A program made the position numbers and the translations under genes. The notes beneath the pieces were generated by a model that searched no databases, was not told where the DNA came from, and worked only from the letters and a program-made list of their open reading frames with translations. DNA of 64,000 bases from Antedon mediterranea (Eukaryota; Animalia; Echinodermata): positions 10,636,948-10,700,947 of the forward strand of contig NC_092673.1 in the NCBI RefSeq assembly GCF_964355755.1, given 5' to 3'. Positions 1-29,070 of this stretch are shown piece after piece (positions within the stretch are counted from its first letter, which is position 1; each line of letters starts with the position of its first letter).

Positions 1-370
1 AAAATAGATTCAAATCGCATTTGGAGACGTTTTAGACCATTTTGAGCATTTCGATAAAACTTTTTCACACAAAACATCAAAATGTACAATTTAGCTTCAA
101 ATCGCATTTGATGACGTTTTTGATGATTTTGAGCATTTCGATAAAACTTTTTCACACAAAACATCAAATTGTACAACATAGCTTCAAATCGCATTTGGAG
201 ACGTTTTAGACCATTTTGAGCATTGCAATAAAACTTTTCACACTAAAACATCAAAGTGCACAAAATAGATTAATATCGTATTTAGAAACGTTTTAGACCA
301 TTTTGAGAATTTCGAAAAAACTTTTTCACACAAAATATAAAATTGTACAAAATAGCTTCAAATCGAATTT

Positions 371-696
371 TTTGTTTTATTTTGTTTTATCTTTATCTTT
401 ATACTGGGTGACCTCTTCAGTCAAAGACTGATCTCCCAGAAGGCCCAGTTGGTGATCAGTGGCTGTGATGTACTAATACACCGGGGTAACCCCCTCCTCG
501 TCTTGAAAGATGTACTAGGTTCTTTAAAGTGCACACGAGCAAGTTGTGTACACTGGACCTACGGTTTATAGTCCTTATCCGAGAAGACTCGTTCTACCAC
601 CAGAAACATGGAGTGAGTGAGCCTCAAACCCCTGCCGATGTTATGGCTACGTGATTACGGTTCAACTGTCTTAACCGCTCGGCCACTCACTCATTC
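371..696 (-). mobile_element. tRNA-derived SINE, copy 1 (central region resembles Deu/Nin-domain SINEs)
   Basis: Minus strand begins GAATGAGTGAGTGGCCGAGCGGTTAAG (Pol III A-box TGGCCGAGCGG) followed by a B-box-like GGTTTGAGGC. Core CTCGGATAAGGACTATAAACCGTAGGTCC...GCACTTTAAAGAACC...GGGGGTTACCCCGG resembles the Deu/Nin core from memory. A-rich repeat tail. AATTT is duplicated at 366-370 and 697-701, and the empty site AATCGAATTTGGAAATG is seen at ~10296, ~11456 and ~15308. Confidence 0.88.
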
Positions 697-942
697 AATT
701 TGGAAATGTTTTAGACAATTTTGAGCATTTCGATAACACTTTGTCAAACAAAACATCAAAATGTACAAAATATCTTCAAATCTCATTTTGAGCATTTCAA
801 TAAAACTTTTCACACTAAAACATCAAAGTGCACAAAATAGATTAATATCGTGTTTAGAAACGTTTTAGACCATTTTGAGAATTTCGAAAAAACTTTTTCA
901 CACAAAATATAAAATTGTACAAAATAGCTTCAAATCGAATTT

Positions 943-1262
943 TTTGTTTTATTTTGTTTTATCTTTATACTGGGTGACCTCTTCAGTCAAAGACTGATCT
1001 CCCAGAGGGCCCAGTTGGTGATCAGTGGCTGTGATGTACTAATACACCGGGGTAACCCCCTCCTCGTCTCGAAAGATGTACTAGGTTCTTTAAAGTGCAC
1101 ACGAGCAAGTTGTGTACACTGGACCTACGGTTTATAGTCCTTATCCGAGAAGACTCGTTCTACCACCAGAACCATGGAGTGAGTGAGCCTCAAACCCCTG
1201 CCGATGTTATGGCTACGTGATTACGGCTCAACTGTCTTAACCGCTCGGCCACTCACTCATTC
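943..1262 (-). mobile_element. tRNA-derived SINE, copy 2
   Basis: Near-identical to 371-696 (4 substitutions and one 6-bp CTTTAT indel by eye). Same flanking AATTT duplication (938-942, 1263-1267) and same satellite context. Confidence 0.88.
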
Positions 1263-3147
1263 AATTTGGAAATGTTTTAGACAATTTTGAGCATTTCGAT
1301 AACACTTTTTCAAACAAAACATCAAAATGTACAAAATATCTTCAAATCTCATTTAGAGACGTTTTAGACCATTTTGTGCATTTCGATGAAACTTGGTCAC
1401 ATTTGAAACCATTTTAGACGATTTTGAGCATTTCGATAAAACTGTTCACACAAAAACATCAACGTGTACAAAATAGCTTAATATCGTATTTGGAAACGTT
1501 TTAGACCATTTTGAACATTTCGACAAAACTTTTTCACACAAAACATCAAATTGTACAACATAATTTCAAATCGCATTTGGAGACGTTTTAAACCATTTTG
1601 AGCATTTCAATAAAACTTTTCACACTAAAACATCAAAGTGCACAAAATAGCTTAACATCGTATTTGGAAACGTTTTAGACAATTTTGAACATTTCGACAA
1701 AACTTTTTCACACAAAACATCAAATTGTACAAAATAGCTTCAAATCGCATTTGTAGACGTTTTATACCATTTTGAGCATTTCAATAAAACTTTTCACACT
1801 AAAACATCAAAGTGCACAAAATAGATTAATATCGTATTTAGAATCGTTTTAGACCATTTTGAGCATTTCGACAAAACTTTTTCACACAAAATATAAAATT
1901 GTACAAAATAGCTTCAAATCGAATTTGGAGTTGTTTTAGACACTTTTGAGCATTTCGATAAAACTTAATCAAAGAAAACATCAAAATGTACAAAATAGCT
2001 TAATATCGTATTTGGAAACGTTTTAGACCATTTTGAACATTTCGACAAAACTTTTTCACACAAAACATCAAATTGTACAAAATAACTTCAAATCGCATTT
2101 GTAGACGTTTTAGACAATTTTTGAGCATTTCAATAAAACTTTTAACACTAAAACATCAAAGTGCACAAAATAGATTAATATCGTATTTAGAAACGTTTTA
2201 GACCATTTTTGAGCATTTCGATAAAACTTTTCACACAAAAACATAAAAGTGCAAAAAATAGCTTAATATCGTATTTGGAAACGCTTTAGACCATTTTGAA
2301 CATTTCGACAACACTTTTTCACACAAAACATCAAATTGTACAACATAGCTTCAAATCGCATTTGGAGACGTTTTAGACCATTTTGAGCATTTCAAAAAAA
2401 CTTTTCACACTAAAACATCAAAGTGCACAAAATAGATTAATATCGTATTTAGAAATGTTTTAGACCATTTTTAGCATTTCGACTAAACTTTTTCACACAA
2501 AATATAAAATTGTACAAAATAGCTTCAAATCGAATTTGGAGTTGTTTTAGACAATTTTGAGCATTTCGATAAAACTTAAACAAACAAAACATCAAAATGT
2601 ACAAAATATCTTCAAATCTCATTTAGAGACGTTTTAGACCATTTTGTGCATTTCGATAAAACTTTTCACACAAAAACATCAAAGTGCACAAAATAGCTTA
2701 ATATCGTATTTGGAAACGTTTTAGACCATTTTGAACATTTCGACAAAACTTTTTCACACAAAACATCAAATTGTACAAAATAACTTCAAATCGCATTTGG
2801 AGACTTTTTAGACAATTTTTGAGCATTTCAATAAAACTTTTCACACTAAAACATCAAAATGTACAAAATAGCTTAAAATAACATTTGAAACCGTTTTAGA
2901 CCATTTTGAGCATTTCGAAAAAACTTTTCACACAAAAACATCAAAGTGCACACAATAGCTTCAAATCGCATTTGGAGACGTTTTAGACCATTTTGAGCAG
3001 TTCAATAAAACTTTTCACACTAAAACATCAAAGTGCACAAAATTGATTAATATCGTATTTCGAAACGTTTTAGACCATTTTGAGCATTTCGATAAAACTT
3101 TTTCACACAAAACATCAAATTGTACGAAATAGCTTCCAATCGCATTT

Positions 3148-3184
3148 CACACTCACGTCATATTGCGAATTTTGGACAAAAAGT
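3148..3184 (+). repeat. Left bipartite terminal inverted repeat: CACACTC-N21-ACAAAAAGT
   Basis: Read directly: heptamer 3148-3154, spacer 3155-3175, nonamer 3176-3184. Confidence 0.8.
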
Positions 3185-5262
3185 GTTTTGAGAGCGCTTT
3201 TGATTTAAACATTAGCGCGAGCCTATCTTATCGCTGAGAATTGTATTGAGAAACCCGAAGACTTCACGCGAGCGAGACGAACTGACTAAGAACATTATTA
3301 CTATAGATTTTCACTTCATACACGCTTATTATTGAACAATAGTTAGTATAAATAACTGCTAGTTAATTAGAGACATTCGATGTTACTAAGAATACTAAAG
3401 AAATTACTTATAATACAAATTTAAAAGATTTATAACGATTCTAGTTTAGGTAACATTCGCCCATTAACATTGAAAACAAACAAATCCTGCGTAGGAAATC
3501 GCGGAACTCTAAAAAGTTTGTTTTAATATCACGCTAAAATTGTTTCCGAATTTTTAAATACATATTTGTAAATAGCATGTTAAATTTCAATATCTTTACT
3601 TTTAATCCTCAAAAAATCAAAATGTTGATATTTTTTAAAAGAATTTTATGATCATTTGAAATCGGGTATATTTACTATCGATCGCGCTCCGCCGGTGCCC
3701 GAGTAGGTGTGTACGCGTCGCTTTTGCAGGCTCTATTCCCAGTAGCGAGTTTCGGTCGCGCTAACATAAGCAATGTTTTCTACCTTTACATGCATTAGGG
3801 GTAAATTATGTTTAATTGTTTTTACCGCATAACAAAATTCCCAAATTTATTTCTTTTCTTGCCTAACCGTTTCTGTCACCCTAAAATCAAATACTTTAAC
3901 TGCATAATTTTAAGCGACAATAACATACAAATAGGCCTACTATAATTTGATCACTTCTTCGCAATACTTGAAAGTTGTTGTATACAATTATTTTAAGAAT
4001 ATAAATAAAAACACACAGAAAATAATAAAATGGCAACTAATTGAAAAGTCAAACTCATTTATTTCATCAATTAAATATTTGAAAAAAATCAAATCAAGTA
4101 AGGTACTGCTGTGTAGGCCTTAAATATGATTATTGTATTTTTTAGTTTTAAATTGTATAATGGCCTAGGCCTAATAATATAGTACTAACAACATGTTTAT
4201 TTCTAAAGGCAAGAATAACAAACAGCTTTATTTATTTACCTTCAATATTAAATCTATGAGAAACCTCAATTATGAGAATCATTTAAATTTCTGTCACCGT
4301 ACATTTCATTATAATGAACACCTTTAATTTAAAAGACATTTAATTAATAAGAGCTGGTCAAATTTTGTTGAATGTCAACATGCTGTCCATAAATAGCCGC
4401 TTTCAAGTGATACAAATGTTTTCTGGAGTCAGATCCTATAAAAAATATAGAAATATAAAAAGTATCTTAATTTAAATATGTATTTGAAAGATGGGCTAGA
4501 GGTATACTGCATGATAAATTAGGCTGAAAAACCTAACATGTGGTCCTAGGCCTACTACAAGGCCTAGCTTAATGTTTTAAATCCCATAAAACTTTTGAAT
4601 TTAATACAAGTACAAAATATAATTTATATAGAGTTGTAAAGTGTGGTACATTCAGTACATTAATTAAAATAAATGAGAATGGGGCCTACTATTAATAAAT
4701 AAACATGTAAAAAATTGGCCTAAACGACTACGTGTGTATCTATACGCATTGATTAACACACAGTACGCGTTGGACCATCAAGGCTAGGCCCAGCTTCGCA
4801 CAAACCACCGTTATACATGTGATTTGTTTACCTATTTAAATCGCCATTTAAAAAATACCTGAAAATATCAACATGCCCATTTTTTGTCAAACGAATATTT
4901 ACATTACATAGTAACTTTTTATTTAGTCACTCGTTTACTCAAAAATTGAGGAATTTTTTTATGGTCTCGTAAAAATGTACAATATTATTATTGATAAAAA
5001 CCGTATAAAATCTAACAAAAAGAAGAGCAAATTCAATGATTACCTGACACGATCATAACTGCTATCCTGTTCCAAAAACCAAGTCACATGCTTCTTCAAC
5101 CCTTGCTTTAATTATTTTCATGAATTATTCATAAGGAACTATAATTTAAGGCTTTCAATTGGTTAAAAGAGTTTAACCCTATTAAAATTTTAAATTCACA
5201 TCATTTCCGGGTGATGTTGTCGCGCTTCGATGAATCTCAGAAATCACAAATGACCGCTCACT

Positions 5263-5289
5263 ACTTTTTGTCTAGTCTAAATGAATGTG
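5263..5289 (-). repeat. Right bipartite terminal inverted repeat: CACATTC-N11-ACAAAAAGT
   Basis: Reverse complement read directly: heptamer 5289-5283, spacer 5282-5272, nonamer 5271-5263. Confidence 0.8.
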
Positions 5290-8200
5290 ATTTGGAGACG
5301 TTTAAACATCAAATTGTACAAAATAGCTTCAAATCGCATTTGGACACGTTTTAGACCATTTTGAGTATTTCGACAAAACTTTTTTACACAAAACATAGAA
5401 TTGTACAACATAGCTTCAAATCGCATTTGGAGACGTTTTAGACCATTTTGAGCATTTCAATAAAACATTTCACACAAAATATAAAATTGTACAAAATAGC
5501 TTCAAATCTCATTTAGAGACGTTTTAGACCACTTTGAGCATTTCGATGAAACTTGGTTACACAAAAACATCAAAGTGTTTAAAATCACATTTGCAACCGT
5601 TTTAGATCACTTTGAGCATTTCGACAAAACTTTTTCACACAAAATATTAAATTGTACAAAATAACTTCAAATCGCATTTGGAGACGTTTTAGACCATTTT
5701 GAGTATTTCAATAAAACTTTTCACACTAAAACATGAAAGTGCACAAAATATATTAATATCGTATTTAGAAACGTTTTAGACCATTTTGAGCATTTCGATA
5801 ACACTTTTTCAAACAAAACATCAAAATGTACAAAATATCTTCAAATCTCATTTAGAGACGTTTTAGACCATTTTGTGCATTTCGATGAAACTTGGTTACA
5901 CAAAAACATCAAAGTGCTTAAAATCACATTTGAAACCATTTTAGACCATTTTGAGCATTTCGATAAAACTTTTTACACAAAAACATCAAAGTGCACAAAA
6001 TAGCTTCAAATCGCATTTGGAGACCTTTTAGACCATTTTGAGCATTTCAATAAAACTTTTCACACTAAAACGTCAAAGTGCACAAAATAGATTAATATCG
6101 TTTTTGGAAACGTTTTAGACCATTTTGAGCATTTCGACAAAACTTTTTCACACAAAATATAAAATTGTACAAAATAACTTCAAATCGCATTTGGAGACGT
6201 TTTAGACCATTTTGAGTATTTCAATAAAACTTTTCACACTAAAACATGAAAGTGCACAAAATATATTAATATCGTATTTAGAAACGTTTTAGACCATTTT
6301 GAGCATTTCGATAACACTTTTTCAAACAAAACATCAAAATGTACAAAATATCTTCAAATCTCATTTAGAGACGTTTTAGACCATTTTGTGCATTTCGATG
6401 AAACTTGGTTACACAAAAACATCAAAGTGCTTAAAATCACATTTGAAACCATTTTAGACCATTTTGAGCATTTCGATAAAACTTTTTACACAAAAACATC
6501 AAAGTGCACAAAATAGCTTCAAATCGCATTTGGAGACCTTTTAGACCATTTTGAGCATTTCAATAAAACTTTTCACACTAAAACGTCAAAGTGCACAAAA
6601 TAGATTAATATCGTTTTTGGAAACGTTTTAGACCATTTTGAGCATTTCGACAAAACTTTTTCACACAAAATATAAAATTGTACAAAATAGCTTAAAATCG
6701 CATTTGGAGACGTTTTAGACCATTTTGAGCATTGCAATAAAACTTTTTCACAGAAAACATCAAATTGTACAAAATAGCTTCAAATCGCATTTGGAGACGT
6801 TGTAGACCATTTTGAGCATTTCAATAAAACCTTTCACACTAAAACATCAAAGTGCACAAAATAGATTAATATCGTATTAAGAAACGTTTTAGACCATTTT
6901 GAGCATTTCGACAAAACTTTTTCACACAAAATATAAAATTGTACAAAATAGCTTCAAATCGCATTTGGAGACGTTTTAGACCATTTTTGAGCATTTCGAT
7001 AAAACTTTTCACATAAAAACATAAAAGTGCAAAAAATAGCTTAATATCGTATTTGGAAACGTTTTAGACCATTTTGAACATTTTGACAAAACTTTTTCAC
7101 ACAAAACATCAAATTGTACAACATAGCTTCAAATCGCATTTGGAGACGTTTTAGACCATTTTGAGCATTTCAATAAAACTTTTCACACTAAAACATCAAA
7201 GTGCACAAAATAGATTAATATCGTATTTAGAAACGTTTTAGACCATTTTGAGCATTTCGACAAAACTTTTTCACCCAAAATATAAAATTGTACAAAATAG
7301 CTTCAAATCGAATTTGGAGTTGTTTTAGACAATTTTGAGCATTTCGTTAAAACTTAATCAAACAAAACATCAAAAAATACAAAATATCTTCAAATCTCAT
7401 TTAGAGACGTTTTAGACCATTTTGTGCATTTCGATAAAACTTTTCACACTAAAACATCAAAGTGCACAAAATAGCTTAATATCGTATTTGGAAACGTTTT
7501 AGACCATTTTGAACATTTCGACAAAACTTTTTCACACAAAACATCAAATTGTACAAAATAACTTCAAATCGCATTTGGAGACGTTTTAGACAATTTTTGA
7601 GCATTTCAATAAAACTTTTCACACTAAAACATCAAAATGTACAAAATAGCTTAAAATAACATTTGAAACCGTTTTAGACCATTTTGAGCATTTCAAAAAA
7701 ACTTTTCACACAAAAACATCAAAGTGCACAAAATAGCTTCAAATCGCATTTGGAGACGTTTTAGACCATTTTGAGCAGTTCAATAAAACTTTTCACACTA
7801 AAACATCAAAGTCCACAAAATTGATTAATATCGTATTTCGAAACGTTTTAGACCATTTTGAGCATTTCGATAAAACTTTTTCACACAAAACATCAAATTG
7901 TACGAAATAGCTTCCAATCGCATTTGGAGACGTTTAAACATCAAATTGTACAAAATAGCTTCAAATCGCATTTGGACACGTTTTAGACCATTTTGAGTAT
8001 TTCGACAAAACTTTTTTACACAAAACATAGAATTGTACAACATAGCTTCAAATCGCATTTGGAGACGTTTTAGACCATTTTGAGCATTTCAATAAAACAT
8101 TTCACACAAAATATAAAATTGTACAAAATAGCTTCAAATCGCTTTTGGAGACGTTTTAGACCATTTTGAGCATTTCGATAAAACTATTTCACACAAAACA

Positions 8201-11200
8201 TCAAAATGTACAATTTAGCTTCAAATCTCATTTAGAGACGTTTTAGACCACTTTGAGCATTTCGATGAAACTTGGTTACACAAAAACATCAAAGTGTTTA
8301 AAATCACATTTGCAACCGTTTTAGATCACTTTGAGCATTTCGACAAAACTTTTTCACACAAAATATTAAATTGTACAAAATAACTTCAAATCGCATTTGG
8401 AGACGTTTTAGACCATTTTGAGTATTTCAATAAAACTTTTCACACTAAAACATGAAAGTGCACAAAATATATTAATATCGTATTTAGAAACATTTAGACT
8501 ATTTTGAGCATTTCGATAACACTTTTTCAAACAAAACATCAAAATGTACAAAATATCTTCAAATCTCATTTAGAGACGTTTTAGACCAGTTTGTGCATTT
8601 CGATGAAACTTGGTTACACAAAAACATCAAAGTGCTTAAAATCACATTTGAAACCATTTTAGACCATTTTGAGCATTTCGATAAAACTTTTTACACAAAA
8701 ACATCAAAGTGCACAAAATAGCTTCAAATCGCATTTGGAGACCTTTTAGACCATTTTGAGCATTTCAATAAAACTTTTCACACTAAAACGTCAAAGTGCA
8801 CAAAATAGATTAATATCGTATTTGGAAACGTTTTAGACCATTTTGAGCATTTCGACCAAACTTTTTCACACAAAATATAAAATTGTACAAAATAGCTTAA
8901 AATCGCATTTGGAGACGTTTTAGACCATTTTGAGCATTGCGATAAAACTTTTTCACAGAAAACATCAAATTGTACAAAATAGCTTCAAATCGCATTTGGA
9001 GACGTTGTAGACCATTTTGAGCATTTCAATAAAACTTTTCACACTAAAACATCAAAGTGCACAAAATAGATTAATATCGTATTAAGAAACGTTTTAGACC
9101 ATTTTGAGCATTTCGACAAAACTTTTTCACACAAAATATAAAATTGTACAAAATAGCTTCAAATCGCATTTGGAGACGTTTTAGACCATTTTTGAGCATT
9201 TCGATAAAACTTTTCACACAAAAACATAAAAGTGCAAAAAATAGCTTAATATCGTATTTGGAAACGTTTTAGACCATTTTGAACATTTCGACAAAACTTT
9301 TTCACACAAAACATCAAATTGTACAAAATAACTTCAAATGGCATTTGGAAACGCTTTAGACCATTTTGAGCATTTCGACAACACTTTTTCACACAAAACA
9401 TCAAATTGTACAACATAGCTTCAAATCGCATTTGGAGACGTTTTAGACCATTTTGAGCATTTCAATAAAACTTTTCACACTAAAACATCAGAGTGCACAA
9501 AATAGATTAATATCGTATTTAGAAACGTTTTAGACCATTTTGAGCATTTCGACAAAACTTTTTCACACAAAATATAAAATTGTACAAAATAGCTTCAAAT
9601 CGAATTTGGAGTTGTTTTAGACATTTTTGAGCATTTCGATAAAACTTAATCAAACAAAACATCAAAATGTACAAAATATCTTCAAATCTCACTTAGAGAC
9701 GTTTTAGACCATTTTGTGCATTTCGATAAAACTTTTCACACTAAAACATCAAAGTGCACAAAATAGATTAATATCGTATTTTGAAACGTTTTAGACCATT
9801 TTGAGCATTTCGACAAAACTTTTTCACACAAAATATAAAATTGTTCAAAATAGCTTCAAATCGAATTTGGAGTTGTTTTAGACAATTTTGAGCATTTCGA
9901 TAAAACTTAATCAAACAAAACATCAAAATGTACAAAATATCTTCAAATCTCATTTAGAGACGTTTTAGACCATTTTGTGCATTTCGATAAAACTTTTCAC
10001 ACAAAAACATCAAAGTCCACAAAATAGCTTAATATCGTATTTGGAAACGTTTTAGACCATTTTGAACATTTCGACAAAACTTTTTCACACAAAACATCAA
10101 ATTGTACAAAATAACTTCAAATCGCATTTGGAGACGTTTTAGACAATTTTTTTAGCATTTCAATAAAACTTTTCACACTAAAACATCAAAGTGCAAAAAA
10201 TAGATTAATATCGTATTTAGAAACGTTTTAGACCATTTTGAGCATTTCGAAAAAACTTTTTCACACAAAATATAAAATTGTACAAAATAGCTTCAAATCG
10301 AATTTGGAAATGTTTTAGACAATTTTGAGCATTTCGATAACACTTTTTCAAACAAAACATCAAAATGTACAAAATATCTTCAATCTCATTTAGAGACGTT
10401 TTATACCATTTTGTGCATTTCGATGAAACTTGGTTACACAAAAACATCAAAGTGCTTAAAATCACATTTGAAACCATTTTAGACCATTTTGAGCATTTCG
10501 ACAAAACTTTTTCACACAAAACATCAAAATGTACAATTTAGCTTCAAATCGCATTTGATGACGTTTTAGACCATTTTGTGCATTTCGATGAAACTTGGTT
10601 ACACAAAAACATCAAAGTGTTTAAAATCACATTTGAAACCGTTTTAGATCATTTTGAGCATTTCGACAAAACTTTTTCACACAAAATATCAAATTGTACA
10701 AAATAACTTCAAATCGCATTTGGAGACGTTTTAGACCATTTTGAGCATTTCAATAAAACTTTTCACACTAAAACATCAAAGTGCACAAAATAGATTAATA
10801 TCGTATTTAGAAACGTTTTAGACCATTTTGAGCATTTCGACAAAAATTTTTCACACAAAATATAAAATTGTACAAAATAGCTTCAAATCGAATTTGGAGT
10901 TGTTTTAGACAATTTTGAGCATTTCGATCAAACTTTTTCAAACAAAACATCAACTTGTACAAAATATTTTCAAATATCATTTAGAGACGTTTTAGACCAT
11001 TTTGTGCATTTCGATGAAACTTGGTTACACAAAAACATCAAAGTCCATTTTGAGCATTTCGATAAAACTTTTCACACAAAAACATCAAAGTGCAAAAATC
11101 GCTTAGTATCGTATTTGGAAACGTTTTAGACCATTTTGAACATTTCGACAAAAACTTTTTCACACAAAACATGAAATTGTACAAAATAACTTCAAATGGC

Positions 11201-14200
11201 ATTTGGAGACGTTTTAGATCATTTTGAGCATTTCGACAAAACTTTTTCACACAAAATATCAAATTGTACAAAATAACTTCAAATCGCATTTAGAGACGTT
11301 TTAGACCATTTTGAGCATTTCAATCAAACTTTTCACACAAAAACATCAAAGTGCACAAAATAGATTAATATCGTATTTAGAAAGGTTTTAGACCATTTTG
11401 AGCATTTCGAAAAAACATTTTCACACAAAATATAAAATTGTACAAAATAGCTTCAAATCGAATTTGGAAATGTTTTAGACAATTTTGAGCATTTCGATAA
11501 CACTTTTCAAACAAAACATCAAAATGTACAAAATATCTTCAAATCTCATTTAGAGACGTTTTAGACCATTTTGTGCATTTCGATGAAACTTGGTTACACA
11601 AAAACATCAAAGTGCTTAAAATCACATTTGAAACCATTTTAGACCATTTTGAGCATTTCGATAAAACTGTTCACACAAAAACATCAACGTGTACAAAATA
11701 GCTTAATATCGTATTTGGAAACGTTTTAGACCATTTTGAACATTTCGACAAAACTTTTTCACACAAAACATCAAATTGTACAACATAATTTCAAATCGCA
11801 TTTGGAGACGTTTTAAACCATTTTGAGCATTTCAATAAAACTTTTCACACTAAAACATCAAAGTGCACAAAATAGCTTAACATCGTATTTGGAAACGTTT
11901 TAGACAATTTTGAACATTTCGACAAAACTTTTTCACACAAAACATCAAATTGTACAAAATAGCTTCAAATCGCATTTGTAGACGTTTTATACCATTTTGA
12001 GAATTTCAATAAAACTTTTCACACTAAAACATCAAAGTGCACAAAATAGATTAATATCGTATTTAGAATCGTTTTAGACCATTTTGAGCATTTCGACAAA
12101 ACTTTTTCACACAAAATATAAAATTGTACAAAATAGCTTCAAATCGAATTTGGAGTTGTTTTAGACACTTTTGAGCATTTCGATAAAACTTAATCAAACA
12201 AAACATCAAAATTTACAAAATAGCTTAATATCGTATTTGGAAACGTTTTAGACCATTTTGAACATTTCGATAAAACTTTTTCACACAAAACATCAAATTG
12301 TACAAAATAACTTCAAATCGCATTTGTAGACGTTTTAGACAATTTTTGAGCATTTCAATAAAACTTTTAACACTAAAACATCAAAGTGCACAAAATAGAT
12401 TAATATCGTATTTAGAAACGTTTTAGACCATTTTTGAGCATTTCGATAAAACTTTTCACACAAAAACATAAAAGTGCAAAAAATAGCTTAATATCGTATT
12501 TGGAAACGTTTTAGACCATTTTGAACATTTCGACAACACTTTTTCACACAAAACATCAAATTGTACAACATAGCTTCAAATCGCATTTGGAGACGTTTTA
12601 GACCATTTTGAGCATTTCAATAAAACTTTTCACACTAAAACATCAAAGTGCACAAAATAGATTAATATCGTATTTAGAAACGTTTTAGACCATTTTGAGC
12701 ATTTCGACTAAACTTTTTCACACAAAATATAAAATTGTATAAAATAGCTTCAAATCTAATTTGGAGTTGTTTTAGACAATTTTGAGCATTTCGATAAAAC
12801 TTAAACAAACAAAACATCAAAATGTACAAAATATCTTCAAATCTCATTTAGAGACGTTTTAGACCATTTTGTGCATTTCGATAAAACTTTTCACACTAAA
12901 ACATCAAAGTCCACAAAATAGCTTAATATCGTATTTGGAAACGTTTTAGACCATTTTGAACATTTCGATAAAACTTTTTCACACAAAACATCAAATTGTA
13001 CGAAATAGCTTCCAATCGCATTTGGAGACGTTTAAACATCAAATTGTACAAAATAGCTTCAAATCGCATTTGGACACGTTTTAGACCATTTTGAGTATTT
13101 CGACAAAACTTTTTTACACAAAACATAGAATTGTACAACATAGCTTCAAATCGCATTTGGAGACGTTTTAGACCATTTTGAGCATTTCAATAAAACATTT
13201 CACACAAAATATAAAATTGTACAAAATAGCTTCAAATCGCTTTTGGAGACGTTTTAGACCATTTTGAGCATTTCGATAAAACTATTTCACACAAAACATC
13301 AAAATGTACAATTTAGCTTCAAATCTCATTTAGAGACGTTTTAGACCACTTTGAGCATTTCGATGAAACTTGGTTACACAAAAACATCAAAGTGTTTAAA
13401 ATCACATTTGCAACCGTTTTAGATCACTTTGAGCATTTCGACAAAACTTTTTCACACAAAATCTTAAATTGTACAAAATAACTTCAAATCGCATTTGGAG
13501 ACGTTTTAGACCATTTTGAGTATTTCAATAAAACTTTTCACACTAAAACATGAAAGTGCACAAAATATATTAATATCGTATTTAGAAACGTTTTAGACCA
13601 TTTTGAGCATTTCGATAACACTTTTTCAAACAAAACATCAAAATGTACAAAATATCTTCAGATCTGATTTAGAGACGTTTTAGACCATTTTGTGCATTTC
13701 GATGAAACTTGGTTACACAAAAACATCAAAGTGCTTAAAATCACATTTGAAACCATTTTAGACCATTTTGAGCATTTCGATAAAACTTTTTACACAAAAA
13801 CATCAAAGTGCACAAAATAGCTTCAAATCGCATTTGGAGACCTTTTAGACCTTTTTGAGCATTTCAATAAAACTTTTCACACTAAAACGTCAAAGTGCAC
13901 AAAATAGATTAATATCGTATTTGGAAACGTTTTAGACCATTTTGAGCATTTCGACAAAACTTTTTCACACAAAATATAAAATTGTACAAAATAGCTTAAA
14001 ATCGCATTTGGAGACGTTTTAGACCATTTTGAGCATTGCGATAAAACTTTTTCACAGAAAACATCAAATTGTACAAAATAGCTTCAAATCGCATTTGGAG
14101 ACGTTGTAGACCATTTTGAGCATTTCAATAAAACTTTTCACACTAAAACATCAAAGTGCACAAAATAGATTAATATCGTATTAAGAAACGTTTTAGACCA

Positions 14201-17200
14201 TTTTGAGCATTTCGACAAAACTTTTTCACACAAAATATAAAATTGTACAAAATAGCTTCAAATCGCATTTGGAGACGTTTTAGACCATTTTTGAGCATTT
14301 CGATAAAACTTTTCACACAAAAACATAAAAGTGCAAAAAATAGCTTAATATCGTATTTGGAAACGTTTTAGACCATTTTGAACATTTCGACAAAACTTTT
14401 TCACACAAAACATCAAATTGTACAACATAGCTTCAAATCGCATTTGGAGACGTTTTAGACCATTTTGAGCATTTCAATAAAACTTTTCACACTAAAACAT
14501 CAAAGTGCACAAAATAGATTAATATCGTATTTAGAAACGTTTTAGACCATTTTGAGCATTTCGACAAAACTTTTTCACACAAAATATAAAATTGTACAAA
14601 ATTGCTTCAAATCGAATTTGGAGTTGTTTTAGACAATTTTGAGCATTTCGATAAAACTTAATCAAACAAAACATCAAAATGTACAAAATATCTTCAAATC
14701 TCATTTAGAGACGTTTTAGACCATTTTGTGCATTTCGATAAAACTTTTCACACTAAAACATCAAAGTGCACAAAATAGATTAATATCGTATTTAGAAACG
14801 TTTTAGACCATTTTGAGCATTTCGACAAAACTTTTTCACACAAAATATAAAATTGTTCAAAATAGCTTCAAATCGAATTTGGAGTTGTTTTAGACAATTT
14901 TGAGCATTTCGATAAAACTTAATCAAACAAAACATCAAAATGTACAAAATATCTTCAAATCTCATTTAGAGACGTTTTAGACCATTTTGTGCATTTCGAT
15001 AAAACTTTTCACACTAAAACATCAAAGTCCACAAAATAGCTTAATATCGTATTTGGAAACGTTTTAGACCATTTTGAACATTTTGACAAAACTTTTTCAC
15101 ACAAAACATCAAATTGTACAAAATAACTTCAAATCGCATTTGGAGACGTTTTAGACAATTTTTTTAGCATTTCAATAAAACTTTTCACACTAAAACATCA
15201 AAGTGCACAAAATAGATTAATATCGTATTTAGAAACGTTTTAGACCATTTTGAGCATTTCGAAAAAACTTTTTCACACAAAATATAAAATTGTACAAAAT
15301 AGCTTCAAATCGAATTTGGAAATGTTTTAGACAATTTTGAGCATTTCGATAACACTTTTTCAAACAAAACATCAAAATGTACAAAATATCTTCAAATCTC
15401 ATTTAGAGACGTTTTATACCATTTTGTGCATTTCGATGAAACTTGGTTACACAAAAACATCAAAGTGCTTAAAATCACATTTGAAACCATTTTAGACCAT
15501 TTTGAGCATTTCGACAAAACTTTTTCACACAAAACATCAAAATGTACAATTTAGCTTCAAATCGCATTTGATGACGTTTTTGACCATTTTGTGCATTTCG
15601 ATGAAACTTGGTTACACAAAAACATCAAAGTGTTTTAAATCACATTTGAAACCGTTTTAGATCATTTTGAGCATTTCGACAAAACTTTTTCACACAAAAT
15701 ATCAAATTGTACAAAATAACTTCAAATCGCATTTGGAGACGTTTTAGACCATTTTGAGCATTTCAATAAAACTTTTCACACTAAAACATCAAAGTGCACA
15801 AAATAGATTAATATCGTATTTAGAAACGTTTTAGACCATTTATCTCTATTGAAATAGCTTCAAATCGAATTTGGAGTTTTTTTAGACAATTTTGAACATT
15901 TCGATCAAACTTTTTCAAACAAAACATCAACATGTACAAAATATTTTCAAATATCATTTACAGACGTTTTAGACCATTTTGTGCATTTCGATGAAACTTG
16001 GTTACACAAAAACATCAAAGTCCATTTTGAGCATTTCGATAAAACTTTTCACACAAAAACATCAAAGTGCAAAAATCGCTTAGTATCGTATTTGGAAACG
16101 TTTTAGACCATTTTGAACATTTCGACAAAACTTTTTCACACAAAACATGAAATTGTACAAAATAACTTCAAATGGCATTTGGAGACGTTTTAGATCATTT
16201 TGAGCATTTCGACAAAACTTTTTCACACAAAATATCAAATTGTACAAAATAACTTCAAATCGCATTTAGAGACGTTTTAGACCATTTTGAGCATTTCAAT
16301 CAAACTTTTCACACTAAAACATCAAAGTGCACAAAATAGATTAATATCGTATTTAGAAAGGTTTTAGACCATTTTGAGCATTTCGAAAAAAACATTTTCA
16401 CACAAAATATAAAATTGTACAAAATAGCTTCAAATCGAATTTGGAAATGTTTTAGACAATTTTGAGCATTTCGATAACACTTTTCAAACAAAACATCAAA
16501 ATGTACAAAATATCTTCAAATCTCATTTAGAGACGTTTTAGACCATTTTGTGCATTTCGATTAAACTTGGTTACACAAAAACATCAAAGTGCTTAAAATC
16601 ACATTTGAAACCATTTTTGACCATTTTGAGCATTTCGATAAAACTGTTCACACAAAAACATCAAAGTGTACAAAATAACTTCAAATCGCATTTAGAGACG
16701 TTTTAGACCATTTTGAGCATTTCAATGAAACTTTTCACACTAAAACATCAAAGTGTACAAAATAGCTTAATATCGTATTTGGAAACGTTTTAGACCATTT
16801 TGAACATTTCGACAAATCTTTTTCACACAAAACATCAAATTGTACAACATAACTTCAAATCGCATTTGGAGACGTTTTAAACCATTTTGAGCATTTCATT
16901 AAAACTTTTCACACTAAGACTTCAAAGTGCACAAAATAGCTTAACATCGTATTTGGAAACGTTTTAGACAATTTTGAACATTTCGACAAAACTTTTTCAC
17001 ACAAAACATCAAATTGTACAAAATAGCTTCAAATCGCATTTGGAGACGTTTTAGACCATTTTGAGCATTTCAATGAAACTTTTCACACTGAAACATCAAA
17101 GTGCACAAAATAGATTAATATCGTATTTAGAAACGTTTTAGACCATTATGAGCATTTCGATAAAACTTTTTCACGCAAAACATCAAAATGTAGAAAATAG

Positions 17201-18148
17201 CTTAAAATCACATTTGAAACCGTTTTAGACCATTTTGAGCATTTCGATAAAACTTTTCACACAAAAACATCAAAGGGCACAAAATAGCTTAACATCGTAT
17301 TTGGAAACGTTTTAGACCATTTTGAGCATTTCGATAAAACTTTTTCACACAAAACATCAAATTGTACGAAATAGCTTCAAATCGTATTTGGAGACGTTTA
17401 AACGTCAAATTGTACAAATTAGCTTCAAATCGCATTTGGACACGTTTTAGACCATTTTGAGTATTTCGACAAAACTTTTTTACACAAAACATCAAATTGT
17501 CATTACCAGTCTAAGCCTGGCTAACCGTTAGCTTTTAGTACCCCGGCTAGCCCAGGTAGTAGTTGTGTCTTTTTAATTAGGCTGACCATGAGTAATCATT
17601 TTACCATGATATATTAGGTGCAATCACCACCACCGAAAGGCTATTCACTATGCATCAGTAAACACAAGAAATTTGAGAACGCCTCTTTCTCTCAGTGATT
17701 AGATTGTTATTGAGCGCGAAATGTAGTAGGGCATTACAATATACTTATACTATTCCTTCTGTGTGAATTGTTATATTCCACTTTTAATAAAAATGTACAA
17801 TACACCAGAATAAGAAATCTCGCCAGTCCAGGCCAGTGTTATATAGCAACGTAAAATCAAAACGTTTAAATCGGAAAGCAATGAATATTTGTCTCACCCA
17901 CGTTTGGAATATGTATGTCATGTGACCAACCACCAGGCTATCCAACCAATCATGGTATAATTAGCAGGATAGGTACAGTATTGCTTTAATAGTAAGGCAG
18001 CTCTTAATATTGTACCATTCTCAAACACTTCACAATCGGAGAATCCGACTCCCACATTATTTAATCTAATTATTTTCTTTTATTTCAAAGTTAAAGATAA
18101 TAATGTAGTCCCGGTTTATATAATCTTAATCAATCCATTAGTTTAAAC

Positions 18149-18732
18149 ATGGCACTGCAACACACTGGGCATCTTCGATGGCCAATAGATAATATCCCTT
18201 GCATCGAAAGGAATGGTGTTGTATACTTAGAAGTTAGGGAATCGTTTCAATTCCTTGGAATATGGCGTAGAAAAGAAAAGTATGGGTACGGACAAATTGA
18301 TAAATTTATGAATGAGAACGGAATTGTTGTGAGAAATGAAATACTGACCAGCAATACTGGCAAAAGAACACATATAAGAAAAAAACAAACCTATACAGAC
18401 ATTCAAGAATATACACAAAAAATATTTGAGTTACGAGACTTTCTCCTATTAAAAGCCACTACCGCCGCAGTAAACCAAAGGGTTGTTATTGACGAAGATG
18501 ACCCTATTATTATTAATCAAAACACAAGGCAAAAAAAGTCCACTTCCAATCTAGTAAGTGCCCTGGACAGAGCACCTGGAGAGAATGGGTATTTGCAACC
18601 CAAAAGTCCATCCCAAAAGCAATCTGTGTGGCGTTTGAATCGTCGAATCGATACGCAGCGAACTGCCTTAAAGAAACTTGCTTCCGATGTTCATGGGGGC
18701 TCAAAGCAAGACCTACTTCAGGGACTGGTTTG
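18149..18732 (+). pseudogene. Transposase exon 1 (N-terminal region)
   Basis: ATG at 18149, open to donor TG|GTATGT at 18732/18733. Splices in frame to exon 2. Confidence 0.65.
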
Positions 18733-18937
18733 GTATGTATCATAACATTGATATTTAAATTCAAATAATAAATTCGTTAGGCGTCACAGTAAGACTCCTC
18801 TAATAATAATATATTTAATAAATTAAGTTCATACCGGTAATAAGCAAAAGTTAACATTTCTAACATAGCAGTATAATTTGCATAATTGAGTACGAACAAA
18901 CCTAAATAATAATTCAACTCATATAAATTAATTATAG

Positions 18938-19075
18938 GGAGTTATCACGACCGGTGCTTGACAACGAGCCTGACGATTGGAATGGTCGTCTCCGTGCAGA
19001 TGATCTTGTGTGGGTGTTAAAACAGACTAAGTCATCGTGTAACAAAGATCCGTCACTTTTTGATGAGATAGTCAG
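18938..19075 (+). pseudogene. Transposase exon 2 (ELSRPVLDNEPDDWNGRLRADDLVWVLKQ...FDEIV)
   Basis: Acceptor ATTATAG|G and donor AG|GTAAA. Stop-free in the phase-2 frame and absent from the ORF track. Confidence 0.65.
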
Positions 19076-19289
19076 GTAAAATACAAAATAGTTTATTTTA
19101 ATAAGATGTAAATTCTTAAGTAATATACTATGTTTTATTCCATAAAGTGCATATTCCGCAATGTCTATATACCCTGCCTATATGCAACTCCTTGATTTAT
19201 AAAAGCTATATTATAATGTACACTAGCGGTCCTTTTTTATATTGTTTACACATAATAGGCTTAACAAGATAGGTTTTGTGTCTTTACAG

Positions 19290-20097
19290 GAAAGCAGCTG
19301 AGGATAAATACTTTTTAAGCGAAGAAAGAGTGCTCCATCTTGAAGACACATGCAATGTATCAGATGCAATTTCAGAACTAAGGAAATTTCTTCCCTGGTA
19401 TGTTAGCTTCTGGATACAAGGTTAAGAAAGTAAAGGAAAAGCATAACAGAAACTTCCGAAACGTTTGGAAACCAATTGAAACAGCTGGAGGCTGGACCTT
19501 AAACGTACAAGCGTTATATGAAACACTTTGTATACGGTACGATTTCCTTGAAACGTTAAGAGGACTCCAGCTATGGCGATTATATATCGACGGGAGAACA
19601 TACGGACGTCGACCAACGACGGTAGTCTCCATATCAAACATAAATGGCATTCAGGAGCTTAAGGGAAACAAAATTCATAGTCCTTCAATGTTTTGGAGAG
19701 TTGGGCTATTTAATTTTGGGGACGATCGATTCAACTTAGAAGCAAATCTGATATCTGGCACAGAATGTATTTACAATAAATGGATACGGTCTCATACAGC
19801 ACAGGGGAATGAAGTCTTTCTCTCTTTTGATGCCAAGTGCCAGGATGCAATAGTTGGCGGCAAGGTGGGTCCATTGACGCAAGATGGGTTCAATATTTAT
19901 ATGTGCTGCACAAAAGAAAGCAACACAAAGTTTGACGCAACGACTGGACTTCGATCAACAATTCCAAAGGCGATCGACCGAGTGCATTCGGAACGTATCT
20001 CTGATATTAAGCTGGAAAATATGGGGATATGCATTGATCATGCGATCACCAGAACTATGGAGTATGAGCTCGAGAAGTTGGTTAATGATGTTCACAA
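19290..20097 (+). pseudogene. Transposase exon 3: RNase H-like core with the first two catalytic Asp candidates
   Basis: Acceptor TCTTTACAG|G and donor AA|GTATTC. Asp codons at 19589-19591 (YIDGR) and 19829-19831 (SFDAK); His at 20039-20041 (CIDHAITR). Frameshift just before 19400. Confidence 0.75.
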
Positions 20098-20327
20098 GTA
20101 TTCATTCTTTACTTGATCCATGGATAGCATATTGTTTCAAACTATTATTTTGTTGCAATTAGGCTATGTAAAACAACAGGGAATTGTAAAATAAGAAATA
20201 CAATACTGTTGAGGGATACAACTGGTTTGGGGACTGTAATATCAAAGAACAGTACCTTGATAACACATTGTTAATACTGTTAAGTGTTATAAACCAAATC
20301 GACAACTGTTTTTTGTTGTATTTATAG

Positions 20328-21081
20328 GAAAACTTCGTTAATTGCTGGAAGAGAGGGCGTCCGATTTCGTTCTGGAAGGTCAAGAAGGCTCGAAGCCAAC
20401 ATTAAAGCCCGAGGTGTACATCGTGACAAAGACGGCGGATTCCACATCCGCTTTGATGAAAATGATAAGCTTCAAAAAATTTCTTTGAACAAGTCGTCAG
20501 CCCAGCTAATTCTGTACCCTGCCGACAAGACCTTTTTTGCATACGAAAATGATTGTCCATTTACAGATATTTTTGACGGAGAATTTTCAAAACAACTTGC
20601 CCGACGATTTGCAAATTTTGTTAAACGTCAACTATCACTTACAAAAGAGTGCATCAATTGATATTTTACCATCTGGCTATGATGTATAAAATTCTACGAC
20701 AATGCCCACGTAGAGAGCGAGATGAAAATCTTGTTGAAAGCATTAATGAAGACGATTATGAGTGAGGCCTCAGCAATGACACCATCAAAGAATACACAAG
20801 GCACGCCGATTTATTTCATCGTCTTCAGGTGTTTCGGTTCGGCAATAAGTTTTCTCCGTACGAGATGAAGTTAATCGATGTTGTACTAATTTTGCTGAAA
20901 TCGCTTCCGTTTCACAGTTTGATGCCTTTGTCGACTGAAGGGGGTGAACGTTCACATTATGTCGACATGTGTCATTTTTATCAGCACACGATGCGTGGTG
21001 GTGGAAAGGGAAAGGAAGATCCAATACTGAAACTATTTCAGTGGCAGTGGAGAAAACTTGTCCACGAAATATCAGAATGTT
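20328..21081 (+). pseudogene. Transposase exon 4, 5' part: insertion domain and catalytic Glu candidate
   Basis: Acceptor TTTATAG|G. Reads ...RLEANIKARGVHRDKDGGFHIRF...ISLNKSSAQLIL..., frameshift, ...HLAMMYKILRQ...DDYE*GL...FSPYEMKL...STEGGE (Glu at 20946-20948)...WQWRKLVHEISEC. Confidence 0.7.
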
Positions 21082-21294
21082 TTTGATGATGAGGGCGCTC
21101 TGGTCAGGAAACCAAGGTGACAGGCCAAACCAAGCTCTGAGTAAAATAGTTATTTTTACACCATATTTCACTGTAAAACGAGGACTAAGTAAGTAATCCT
21201 GATTTACATAAGGATTCTGAACAAAAAGAAGTTTGTCGTTTGGTATATTACGATAATATACTCAAGTTTAACGTGTAAAATCCAACGTAGCTTA

Positions 21295-26711: not shown

Positions 26712-27765
26712 TGTTGTTAAATGATAATGTATGTATAAAAAAATAATAGAATAAATAATAAGTAAAAAAAAATAATTGAATGAACCCACATAGGAAAAAA
26801 AAGTTAAATGAAACTTTGATGGGTTATACTGTAGATGCAAAAAAGGATAATCTGTTGGAAATAAATTTTGTAAACATTTAAAGATCAAAAAAAAATCAAT
26901 GTTAAAGGATGAGGAAAATATAATGTTAACAGTAAAAAGTTAGTAAGTAATTAGTATAACTGAGAATATGCATTGTTTTAAATGAAAATATGTTTGCATA
27001 GATAAATCCAAAGAAAAATAGAATGGGACAAACCCATGGGATGGATTTATTAAACATAAACGTATTATAATTGTATGAAATAAATATGCATGTAGATGAA
27101 AAAAAACCAAAAACAACTATGTAAGAAAAAATAAGCTTTGTTATTGAAAATGTGTTATAGATAATATGTATAAAAAGAGGAAACTATGTAATCAATGTGG
27201 TTAAATGATAATGTATGTATAAACAAAATAATATATGGAAATAGTTTTTTTTTTTTTTAAAGAAAATAAGTAAAAAAAAAAAGTGGAATGAATCCACATA
27301 AGAGAAGAAAGTAAAAAAGTTAAATGAAAATTTAAGAAGTTATAGATGCAAAAAAGGATCTGCTGGTTCTGTAAACATTAAAGAACAAAAATATTAATAT
27401 TAATGTTAAAGGATGAGAACAATATTATGTTAACAGCAAACATTTAGTAAGTAATGAGTATAACAGAGAATATGCATTGTTAAATGAAAATGTGGTAGAT
27501 GAAAAAAAATCAAAAACAACTATGTAAGAAAAAAAAAAAATAAGCTTGTTAATGAAAATGTGTTACAGATAATATGTTTAAAAAGAGGAAGCTATGTAAT
27601 CAATGTGATAATATGTAAACAAATGAATAAAACTCTTTAAATAAGTATATGTATACAGATGATTAAACAAACATTGTAAATATAATGATATGTATAGTGT
27701 ATAGTGAAAAATATATGTAAAGAGAACAGTGGTATGGAAATAAAAGTGGGATGAACCCACATAAG
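26712..27765 (+). repeat. Diverged ~490-bp tandem duplication within the retrotransposon 3'UTR
   Basis: GTTAAATGATAATGTATGTATAAA at ~26715 and ~27200; AATGTTAAAGGATGAG at ~26897 and ~27402; TGAA(C/T)CCACATA at ~26781, ~27289 and ~27752. Confidence 0.75.
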
Positions 27766-27790
27766 ATAAAAAAAAAAATATCAGAATGTT

Positions 27791-28355
27791 CGGACACCGT
27801 ACAGGAACGTTTCACTAAATTGGTAAACGACTCAGTAGCAGAGAACAATGAAACAGATAACAATTTAGATGAAACAATAGGCCCGAATGACGTGGAAATA
27901 CACGATCTCACCAACCAACAATTAGATAGTGAAGAAGCAGCTCAACAATCATCGATGTGTGTTCTTAGTTGGAAAACAATCGTTCTTGCCGGTACGCTTT
28001 ACAAATTGCAGAAGGAAATAGCTTCAACGAAACTTATTACGAAATTCGGGGGAACACTCTGGTCTATATCAAAGTCGACTTTGCCATCCCCATACATTCC
28101 ACATCATAACCTAATCGTTGTGTCAACACAAAAAGAGTGCGACAAGGCCCATGGAAAAGTCCCTACTTTGCTTGCGGAGGCAGCACGACGCGGGGTTACA
28201 ATTGTCAGCGATAACTTTTTGAAAGATATTGAGAACGGATGTATCGGAACACGGTCTCATAAGGATTACCTCCTTGATACATCGACATCCGAAAATGCAC
28301 CAACAATGACTTTGCAGAGTTTACCACAGGATACTACACTTCAACAATATAAAAG
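27791..28355 (+). pseudogene. Transposase exon 4, 3' part: acidic linker plus BRCT-like domain (~27961-28278)
   Basis: Continues in frame from ...HEISEC once the L1 and one TSD copy are removed. LSWKTIVLAG...LITKFGG...IVVST...AARRGVTIVSDNFLKD...DYLL follows the BRCT pattern. Donor AG|GTACGT. Confidence 0.7.
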
Positions 28356-28791
28356 GTACGTCAGGCTTCTTTTATAGTAAACAAACTAAATAATTATTTA
28401 ATAATTTTTGTATGAGCCGACATACGCGTTAAAGTAGCAAAATCGTTTAATGCACATTACGTGTTATGTTTAATGTGATATCTAACCACCGGTGATCTAA
28501 CACGATAAACAAATCAAAACTACAATGGTTCGAAATACATAACACTGGGCCCATTAAAGATAACATTTAAATAATAATATATAACAAAATCAGAATCAAA
28601 TTGGTATAGATAATAATAATAATATAATGTTCTTTAGCAAACTTGTGGATAAATATCTATAATGTTTTGCGTTTAAAGTTGATATATACTGTATCCGTGT
28701 CGCAGTACAGTAAAGTAACTTCCAATGCGCATTACAGTACCTAGTTTTAATTGTATTCGGGGTGTAAACGCATTTTAATTCATTTTTAAAG

Positions 28792-28944
28792 GTTCAAGTT
28801 CAAGATGAAAATACACCTATCATAGCACAGAATCGCTTGACTAGTCAAAATCGAAGAGACGTTGAAAGATGGAATAATCTGACAAGGGACGAGAAGGAAG
28901 TGTGGAATACCAGAGCGCGTCTACTTAATGACAACAGACCGTAG
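28792..28944 (+). pseudogene. Probable last exon, HMG-box-like C-terminus (ERWNNLTRDEKEVWNTRAR)
   Basis: Acceptor TTTTAAAG|G. W-x2-L-T-x2-EK-x2-W-x3-A matches the HMG-box helix 2/3 pattern. Stop TAG at 28942-28944. Phase with the previous exon requires a frameshift, so the join is uncertain. Confidence 0.45.
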
Positions 28945-29070
28945 GTAAAGCAGTTATTGAAGATGAAATAATTAAACTAAATTGGTAACAGAAACAAAAA
29001 ACGCAAACTCCTGTATTTATTTATAAAAATATTAATATTTTAATATACGGTATTCACTCAATATTTAATT

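Follow-up and report, generated by a model that had tools for sequence, protein, structure and literature searches.

The origin of the 12/23 rule is debated, with a RAGL-A transposon (PMC10629977) and asymmetric Transib elements (PMC8355894) put forward as sources. Transib elements were described by Kapitonov & Jurka (2005) as having RSS-like ends and making 5-bp duplications at GC-rich targets, and five families (Transib5, Transib2_AG and TransibN1-3_AG) have an RSS12-like 5' end together with an RSS23-like 3' end (PMC1131882). The duplication length varies within Transib, relatives being described with 3-bp and TA duplications (10.64898/2026.08.26.747230). PflRAGL-A of Ptychodera flava also has ends with a one-turn asymmetry (Martin et al., 2023, PMC10629977; 10.1101/2023.08.20.553239), the 5' TIR being the shorter one as read from the supplement alignment (PMC10629977). 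The duplications of protostome RAGL elements are reported to be invariably 5 bp (PMC7204232), and ProtoRAG favours its own asymmetric 27/31 ends (PMC8289069). Chapaev elements have CAC..GTG termini and 3-4 bp duplications (PMC4079192), the Chapaev3 subgroup making a 3-bp TWA duplication (PMC4079192, PMC3014272), and the CMCT clade (CACTA, Mirage, Chapaev, Transib) is characterized by CA..TG termini and a duplication of 2-5 bp (PMC12730594, PMC4411706).

The window, that is, the whole stretch of 64,000 nucleotides of Antedon mediterranea DNA that was analysed, contains an insertion with ends of this general kind, for which an 87-bp satellite array is the host DNA. The insertion, its target duplication and the corresponding empty sites are as follows.

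3144..3147, plus strand, left copy of the 4-bp target duplication, ATTT
3148..5289, no strand given, whole non-autonomous element, 2142 bp, non-coding
5290..5293, plus strand, right copy of the 4-bp target duplication, ATTT
7922..7925, plus strand, empty paralogous site, one ATTT
13020..13023, plus strand, second empty paralogous site, one ATTT

The 87-bp satellite (window 1-17500) is organized in higher-order blocks spaced ~5.1 kb, to which the empty sites at 7922 and 13020 belong, and each block has a shortened 48-bp unit where the insertion site lies. The satellite is also interrupted at ~370-690 and ~940-1260 of the window by two near-identical ~310-bp inserts with a T-rich start, which look like a short retroposon duplicated together with its flank.

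When the filled site was compared with the empty site at 7922-7925, 198/200 bases were identical on the left and 200/200 on the right. As such near-identical empty sites carry a single ATTT, the boundaries and the 4-bp duplication are firm for the window copy (3148-5289), which is the one copy in which the duplication length was measured. A reading made beforehand from the sequence alone (hereafter the sequence-only reading) had based the boundaries on empty sites at ~7911 and ~13008 and proposed a 4-bp TSD; both proposals were upheld, with the single ATTT located at 7922-7925 and 13020-13023 and ATTT present on both sides of the copy measured. A T-CACA end with a 2-bp duplication would fit the window copy alone, but it was rejected on the junctions of other copies, the flanks of which vary immediately before 3148. 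With inverted termini, a target duplication, empty sites and no transposase, the element has the make-up of a non-autonomous TIR DNA transposon. The longest stop-free frame within it is 62 aa, no Pfam domains were found in any of its six frames, read through stops, and window 1-30500, which includes the element, gave no match to an Rfam family.

At each end, a heptamer-like terminus is followed by a spacer, a nonamer-like box and a third block, at these positions.

3148..3154, plus strand, heptamer-like terminus CACACTC of the long end (likely the 3' end); other insertions start at the same C
3155..3175, plus strand, 21-bp spacer of the long end
3176..3184, plus strand, nonamer-like box ACAAAAAGT of the long end; the shared 10-mer is 3175-3184
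3198..3206, plus strand, third block of the long end, matching the other end at 8/9 positions when shifted by the same 10 bp
5283..5289, minus strand, heptamer-like terminus CACATTC of the short end (likely the 5' end); the alignment of a diverged contig also ends at 5289
5272..5282, minus strand, 11-bp spacer of the short end
5263..5271, minus strand, nonamer-like box ACAAAAAGT of the short end
5241..5249, minus strand, third block of the short end, partner of 3198-3206

The long end therefore reads CACACTC, 21 bp and ACAAAAAGT over 3148-3184, and the short end, in reverse complement from 5289, reads CACATTC, 11 bp and ACAAAAAGT, in agreement with the layout and the identical nonamer block that had been proposed. 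Compared with the RSS consensus quoted in the sequence-only reading, both ends scored 5/7 for the heptamer and 7/9 for the nonamer, the same values as given there. At zero shift the two ends are identical at 7/8 of their first bases, and the longest block common to both beyond the heptamer, GACAAAAAGT, is found at a shift of exactly 10; the 10-bp difference in spacer length had been remarked upon in the sequence-only reading. The +10 register runs on into the 8/9 block (3198-3206 vs 5249-5241). The ends have the heptamer, spacer and A-rich nonamer of Transib RSS-like ends, which are sometimes 12/23-like, with heptamer positions 6-7 off the consensus.

It is highly improbable that the A-rich block is shared by coincidence in AT-rich DNA and that the real inverted repeat consists of the terminal 8 bp only. 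Lone RSS-like sites do arise by chance at about 1 per 1-7 kb, by stringency: two more sites with at least 5/7 and at least 7/9 matches were found in 13.6 kb scanned on both strands, and 11 more CAC sites with at least 7/9 matches to the element's own nonamer in 15.2 kb. A lone RSS-like end is thus not rare in the DNA of the window, and the weight rests on the pairing at two true termini. Random 38-mer pairs from the element interior shared a 10-mer in 1075/200,000 cases, and shared one at a shift of 10-11 in 102/200,000, which argues against coincidence, as do the position of a second block in the same register and the GGAC and A-tract retained by the diverged relative described below. In a post hoc test, the 8/9 score of the third block was reached by 956/100,000 random pairs and in 0/25 other registers.

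Part of the element is present in 11 public runs, of which seven were examined and the low-share runs X3, X4, X5 and X7 left out; all family-level data come from one sample (runs X8-X11). In run X8 the whole element is covered at a depth of ~380-450 in few long contigs, with diverged low-copy contigs at 6.7-9.4. The family is young, probably with tens of copies, an estimate given only as tens because depth is not equal to copy number. Relative to the majority sequence in X8, the window copy carries 21 substitutions and 4 indels, none of them in 3148-3226 or 5256-5289, and these differences look private to it, since runs X1, X2 and X6 also carry the majority letters at several covered sites. 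X1 and X6 contain interior pieces alone, at a depth of 2-4, and so no habitat is deduced from them.

Several copies at different sites share the same boundary, the left one being seen in at least six distinct junction contigs and the right one in one other contig. The left flank changes from one contig to the next and is AT-rich in most of them (the last four letters are GATT, ATCT, GTCA and AAAT in unmixed rows, and AATT, CTAA, ACAA and ACCA in mixed ones). A 57-bp contig identical to 3148-3204 has a depth of 494, 1689, 1504 and 1489 in the four runs of the sample, compared to ~7-46 for junction contigs in the same four runs. Among the 32 of 71 pieces listed, 19 reach 3148 and 19/19 align through the 21-bp spacer, three of them with one 1-bp gap and the others with none. 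Within 5256-5289, which covers the 11-bp end, no listed difference reached 5% of depth. As the 21-bp end is the majority form and the 11-bp end has no listed variant, the asymmetry extends beyond the window copy. This disposes of the concern that the 10-bp difference was a private indel, and the mobile non-autonomous family that had been postulated is recovered as many near-identical copies at different sites, without coding capacity. The depth of 3148-3204 is ~2x that of the interior in 3/4 runs, which suggests that other families also carry this long end and that several have kept it.

One contig represents a diverged relative with a different left end. It occurs in 4/4 runs near single-copy depth, is ~86% identical over 3179-3341 (163 bp) and begins with CACACTT, an 11-bp spacer and a box with one A fewer; the CAC terminus is intact, and GGAC plus an A-tract are kept. 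The 11 bp align with the distal portion of the 21-bp spacer and leave a clean gap of 10 bp, the absent segment being the 10 bp adjoining the heptamer. This is the only large spacer change among the listed pieces and, at exactly 10 bp or one helical turn, it fits phased two-part recognition. On the opposite side, a diverged right-end contig stops aligning at 5289 and continues for ~1.2 kb, with no gap letters beyond the 8 that the majority also shows, a count which suggests that the short spacer is kept. Given the 11-bp left relative and the right-end contig without an extra gap, an 11/11 element may exist. There are also low-copy contigs in X8 that are 80-87% identical to subterminal parts only (3195-3341, 3549-3673, 4994-5289) and unrelated beyond that; these may be sister families or older copies, and the autonomous partner may be among them.

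The diverged relative may represent an ancestral symmetric form, an element with its ends swapped or a copy in decay. If it reflects the ancestral state, the ends were once 11/11, and a chance 10-bp insertion on the left was tolerated with the helical phase kept and carried in the latest amplification, in which case the asymmetry is permitted and not required. We regard such a history as possible, though we lean against it. In support of it, the relative has an intact CAC and its left spacer, of 11 bp, is homologous to the distal stretch of the 21-bp one, and the right-end contig, of similar depth, appears from its gap count to keep the short form. However, the relative has also lost one A of the box, so it may be decaying and its deletions its own, the long version could be at its far end, and the long form is common to more copies than the interior (3148-3204, ~2x depth in 3/4 runs). 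This history is compatible with a Chapaev-type or a Transib/RAGL enzyme alike and leaves the 12/23 parallel one of form only. The asymmetry is fixed in the young family and one diverged relative has 11 bp on the left. The sequence-only reading had named symmetric TIRs in other copies, with the 10-bp difference a private indel, as grounds for refutation; the 11/21 family runs counter to this, and the left spacer of the relative bears it out in part. With this one relative, an obligatory 11/21 rule is unproven, and whether 11/21 pairing is obligatory or strongly preferred is nearly an even question, leaning slightly towards no.

The polarity of the element was assessed from a 460-nt cDNA-like contig, the only one of its kind, in run X2 (run type listed as a guess). 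It is on the minus strand, spliced and polyadenylated, with the following parts.

5044..5068, minus strand, first exon of the spliced transcript, 25 nt, donor CAG/GTAAT
4436..5043, minus strand, GT..AG intron, 608 bp, with a canonical donor and a pyrimidine tract plus AG acceptor
4041..4435, minus strand, second exon, ending in poly(A), with AATAAA at 4063-4058

The transcript starts ~220 bp inside the short (11-bp) end, and the contig has a non-matching leader at 5068, which we take to be a template-switch adaptor. The AATAAA sits 17 bases before the transcript end, and within the 420-nt RNA no ATG frame exceeds 34 aa. The RNA is likely to be a leftover of the promoter, first exon and first intron of a transposase and, when read in this way, one contig from one run makes the 11-bp end the likely 5' end.

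A transposase or autonomous partner of the element was not found in the window, the metagenome contigs or the viral loci. The exact 22-base left end had 0 matches in the metagenome contigs. A degenerate short-end pattern was found at 24 viral loci, 0/24 having a partner end and duplication, and at no fewer than 120 metagenome loci (11/64 parts scanned), 119/120 of which were without a partner end and duplication (long flanks for 80/120). Metagenome locus L114, with a 69-bp pairing only, was at chance level and was rejected. Seven metagenome loci with a look-alike motif were rejected, the motif being internal to an unrelated repeat of ~690 bp. This repeat has inverted ends of ~60 bp and is present at L080:9567-10257 and in L067, L082, L084, L115, L137 and L144.

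A transposase gene does occur in the window ~13 kb from the element, with one signal-like site upstream of it.

17646-17672, plus strand, CACTATG-N11-ACAAGAAAT, ~500 bp upstream of the transposase gene
18104-21086, resuming past a LINE, with a BRCT part at 27721-28374 and an HMG-box-like tail at ~28800-28940, broken intron-containing RAG1/Transib-fold transposase gene

The gene is one of a family with at least 100 representatives, and its best match, at 49% identity, comes from a crinoid, Anneissia japonica. The predicted model of a close homologue matches RAG1 (Foldseek E ~1e-10; Atlas score 0.94), and in some homologues further parts, ubiquitin-like and ubiquitin-protease-like, are present at the N terminus. 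Candidates for the catalytic D, D and E appear to be there, and the zinc-binding Cys/His motifs of the clade look reduced. RAG borrows HMGB1, which makes a built-in HMG box striking. In the literature covered, no BRCT/HMG-box transposase family was found, homologues of greater length were looked for without success, and a search for loci of the family with one protein query returned two pattern matches and 0 confirmed relatives. The gene is interrupted by an L1/Tx1-like LINE (21193 to ~27700, plus strand) whose ORF1 has a zinc knuckle and whose ORF2, for an endonuclease-reverse transcriptase, is frameshifted. Beyond the gene lie a 42-bp minisatellite of 31.5 copies (29070-30375), both 21-bp halves of which contain CACA on the minus strand, and a 33.6-kb array of an AG-rich 19-bp repeat with extreme strand skew (30381-64000).

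That the element is moved by this unnamed RAG1-fold family, of which the broken copy lies at 18.1-29 kb, is very unlikely. The RAG1 match of the homologue model, the BRCT and HMG-box parts and the CACTATG site near the gene would be in keeping with such a role. Yet the element has no DNA similarity better than E 0.05 to the rest of 1-30400, and 102 homologues gave no match when run against it by tblastn; with no sequence in common, the neighbouring transposase is probably not the partner. As for the CACTATG site, it is unlike the element's ends and one of 11 sites of similar, chance-level score, no partner end was found for it, and it is possible that it forms the terminus of the neighbouring gene's own element.

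The element is best explained as a copy of a young, gene-less cut-and-paste family that is likely moved in trans by a RAG1-fold enzyme, which would belong to the CACTA-Mirage-Chapaev-Transib clade and most likely be of the Chapaev type, and we consider this account probable. The family itself is real, young and non-autonomous, with family-level 11/21 ends and, likely, the polarity of asymmetric Transib and RAGL-A. A Chapaev-type enzyme would make 4-bp staggered cuts at AT-rich sites, cutting at the terminal CAC while a second DNA-binding module grips the GACAAAAAGT box. The 10-bp difference would keep this box on the same helix face, so that a single enzyme might bind ends of both lengths, much as RAG binds 12 and 23. 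The placement in the clade is likely, judged from the termini and the one measured duplication. Against this account, no transposase is tied to the element's ends, and the ATTT may be a 5-bp duplication minus one base in a window copy with 21 substitutions and 4 indels. The duplication length is also labile inside Transib (10.64898/2026.08.26.747230), and some 4-bp duplications are made by RAG in vitro (PMC1131882).

An unlikely alternative is a non-autonomous Transib/RAGL derivative of the known asymmetric type, in which the 4-bp duplication represents a lineage-specific drift of target spacing or damage to a single copy. The end layout and likely 5'/3' polarity match those of Transib5, Transib2_AG, TransibN1-3_AG and PflRAGL-A, and both Transib relatives with 3-bp and TA duplications (10.64898/2026.08.26.747230) and non-autonomous RAGL elements of 1.5-2.2 kb (PMC7204232 supplement) are described. 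An echinoderm host, likely from the crinoid match of the neighbouring gene, also speaks for it. However, the empty sites are clean and give a duplication of 4 bp, the AT-rich flanks contrast with the GC-rich targets of Transib, the last two heptamer letters are TC where the Transib consensus CACAATG ends in TG, and the element is without the conserved A-rich TR2 block that adjoins the heptamer in RAGL.

The broadest reading is that a lineage outside Transib/RAG, whether Chapaev or an unnamed RAG1-fold family, has enforced 11/21 heptamer-spacer-nonamer ends with a short-5'/long-3' polarity. We hold this to be doubtful; if true, the 12/23 geometry would be older than the Transib/RAG branch or would re-arise repeatedly through single 10-bp spacer indels, and one such 10-bp step may be caught between the 11-bp and 21-bp left-end forms of one genome. 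Both views on the origin of the 12/23 rule draw on the few elements whose ends are asymmetric by one turn, and in those covered here the duplication is 5 bp. A third lineage would be gained if a family with such ends was recently active and duplicates 4 bp, and this would speak for the geometry as a trait of RAG1-fold transposases that is ancient or evolves anew with ease. Test substrates are also at hand in the two forms, 11-bp and 21-bp, of one end. Without the enzyme, the family is one further example of a known design.

Compared with the known systems, the element has the CA..TG termini and a duplication within the 2-5 bp of the CMCT clade, membership of which is defined by a DDE transposase with C(2)C and H(3-4)H motifs, and is itself non-coding. 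It likewise has the CAC...GTG termini of Chapaev, a group defined by a transposase with the Chapa zinc finger, with or without RING; the six frames of the non-coding element gave no Pfam match. Its duplication, 4 bp in the one copy measured, falls within the 3-4 bp of Chapaev and differs, as ATTT, from the 3-bp TWA of Chapaev3. Chapaev is also alike in that RAG1-related enzymes occur there in marine invertebrates (PMC4079192, PMC4411706, PMC12730594). In the Chapaev literature searched, two-part ends with a one-turn asymmetry were not found; Repbase and Dfam entries, which lay outside the search, may show such a layout. One-turn asymmetric ends together with a 4-bp duplication were not found in the literature covered, to which Repbase, Dfam and the N-RAG-TP paper (Panchin and Moroz) did not belong.

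With the V(D)J 12/23 signals the ends share the 5/7 and 7/9 matches, the critical CAC, the central As and a difference of about one turn; they differ in having spacers of 11/21 and not 12/23 and in being transposon ends, for which a pairing rule would be hypothetical. PflRAGL-A is alike in the 10-bp spacer asymmetry, the AT-rich nonamer-like box and the shorter 5' end but has 5-bp duplications, a TR2 block by the heptamer and RAG1L and RAG2L genes, none of which the element has. RAGL elements are recognized by these two genes, or by ends in common with an element that has them; here the element is non-coding, the 5-bp duplication is absent and, in place of an A-rich TR2, the zero-shift agreement of the ends stops at position 8. 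Asymmetric Transib shares the CAC termini, the heptamer, variable spacer and A-rich nonamer, the short 5' and long 3' spacers and the existence of non-autonomous members. Transib differs in its 5-bp GC-rich duplications and CACAATG-type heptamer, in contrast to the 4-bp ATTT with AT-rich left flanks, the CACACTC/CACATTC heptamers and the 11/21 spacers found here. Since heptamer/spacer/nonamer ends with an asymmetry of about one turn have been published for Transib families and PflRAGL-A, the end design is not new; of the 12/23-like asymmetric family put forward in the sequence-only reading, the family-level 11/21 ends stand and the novelty of the design does not. The novel part in relation to Transib and RAGL-A is the 4-bp, AT-rich, Chapaev-like target, measured in one copy, which suggests a different enzyme.
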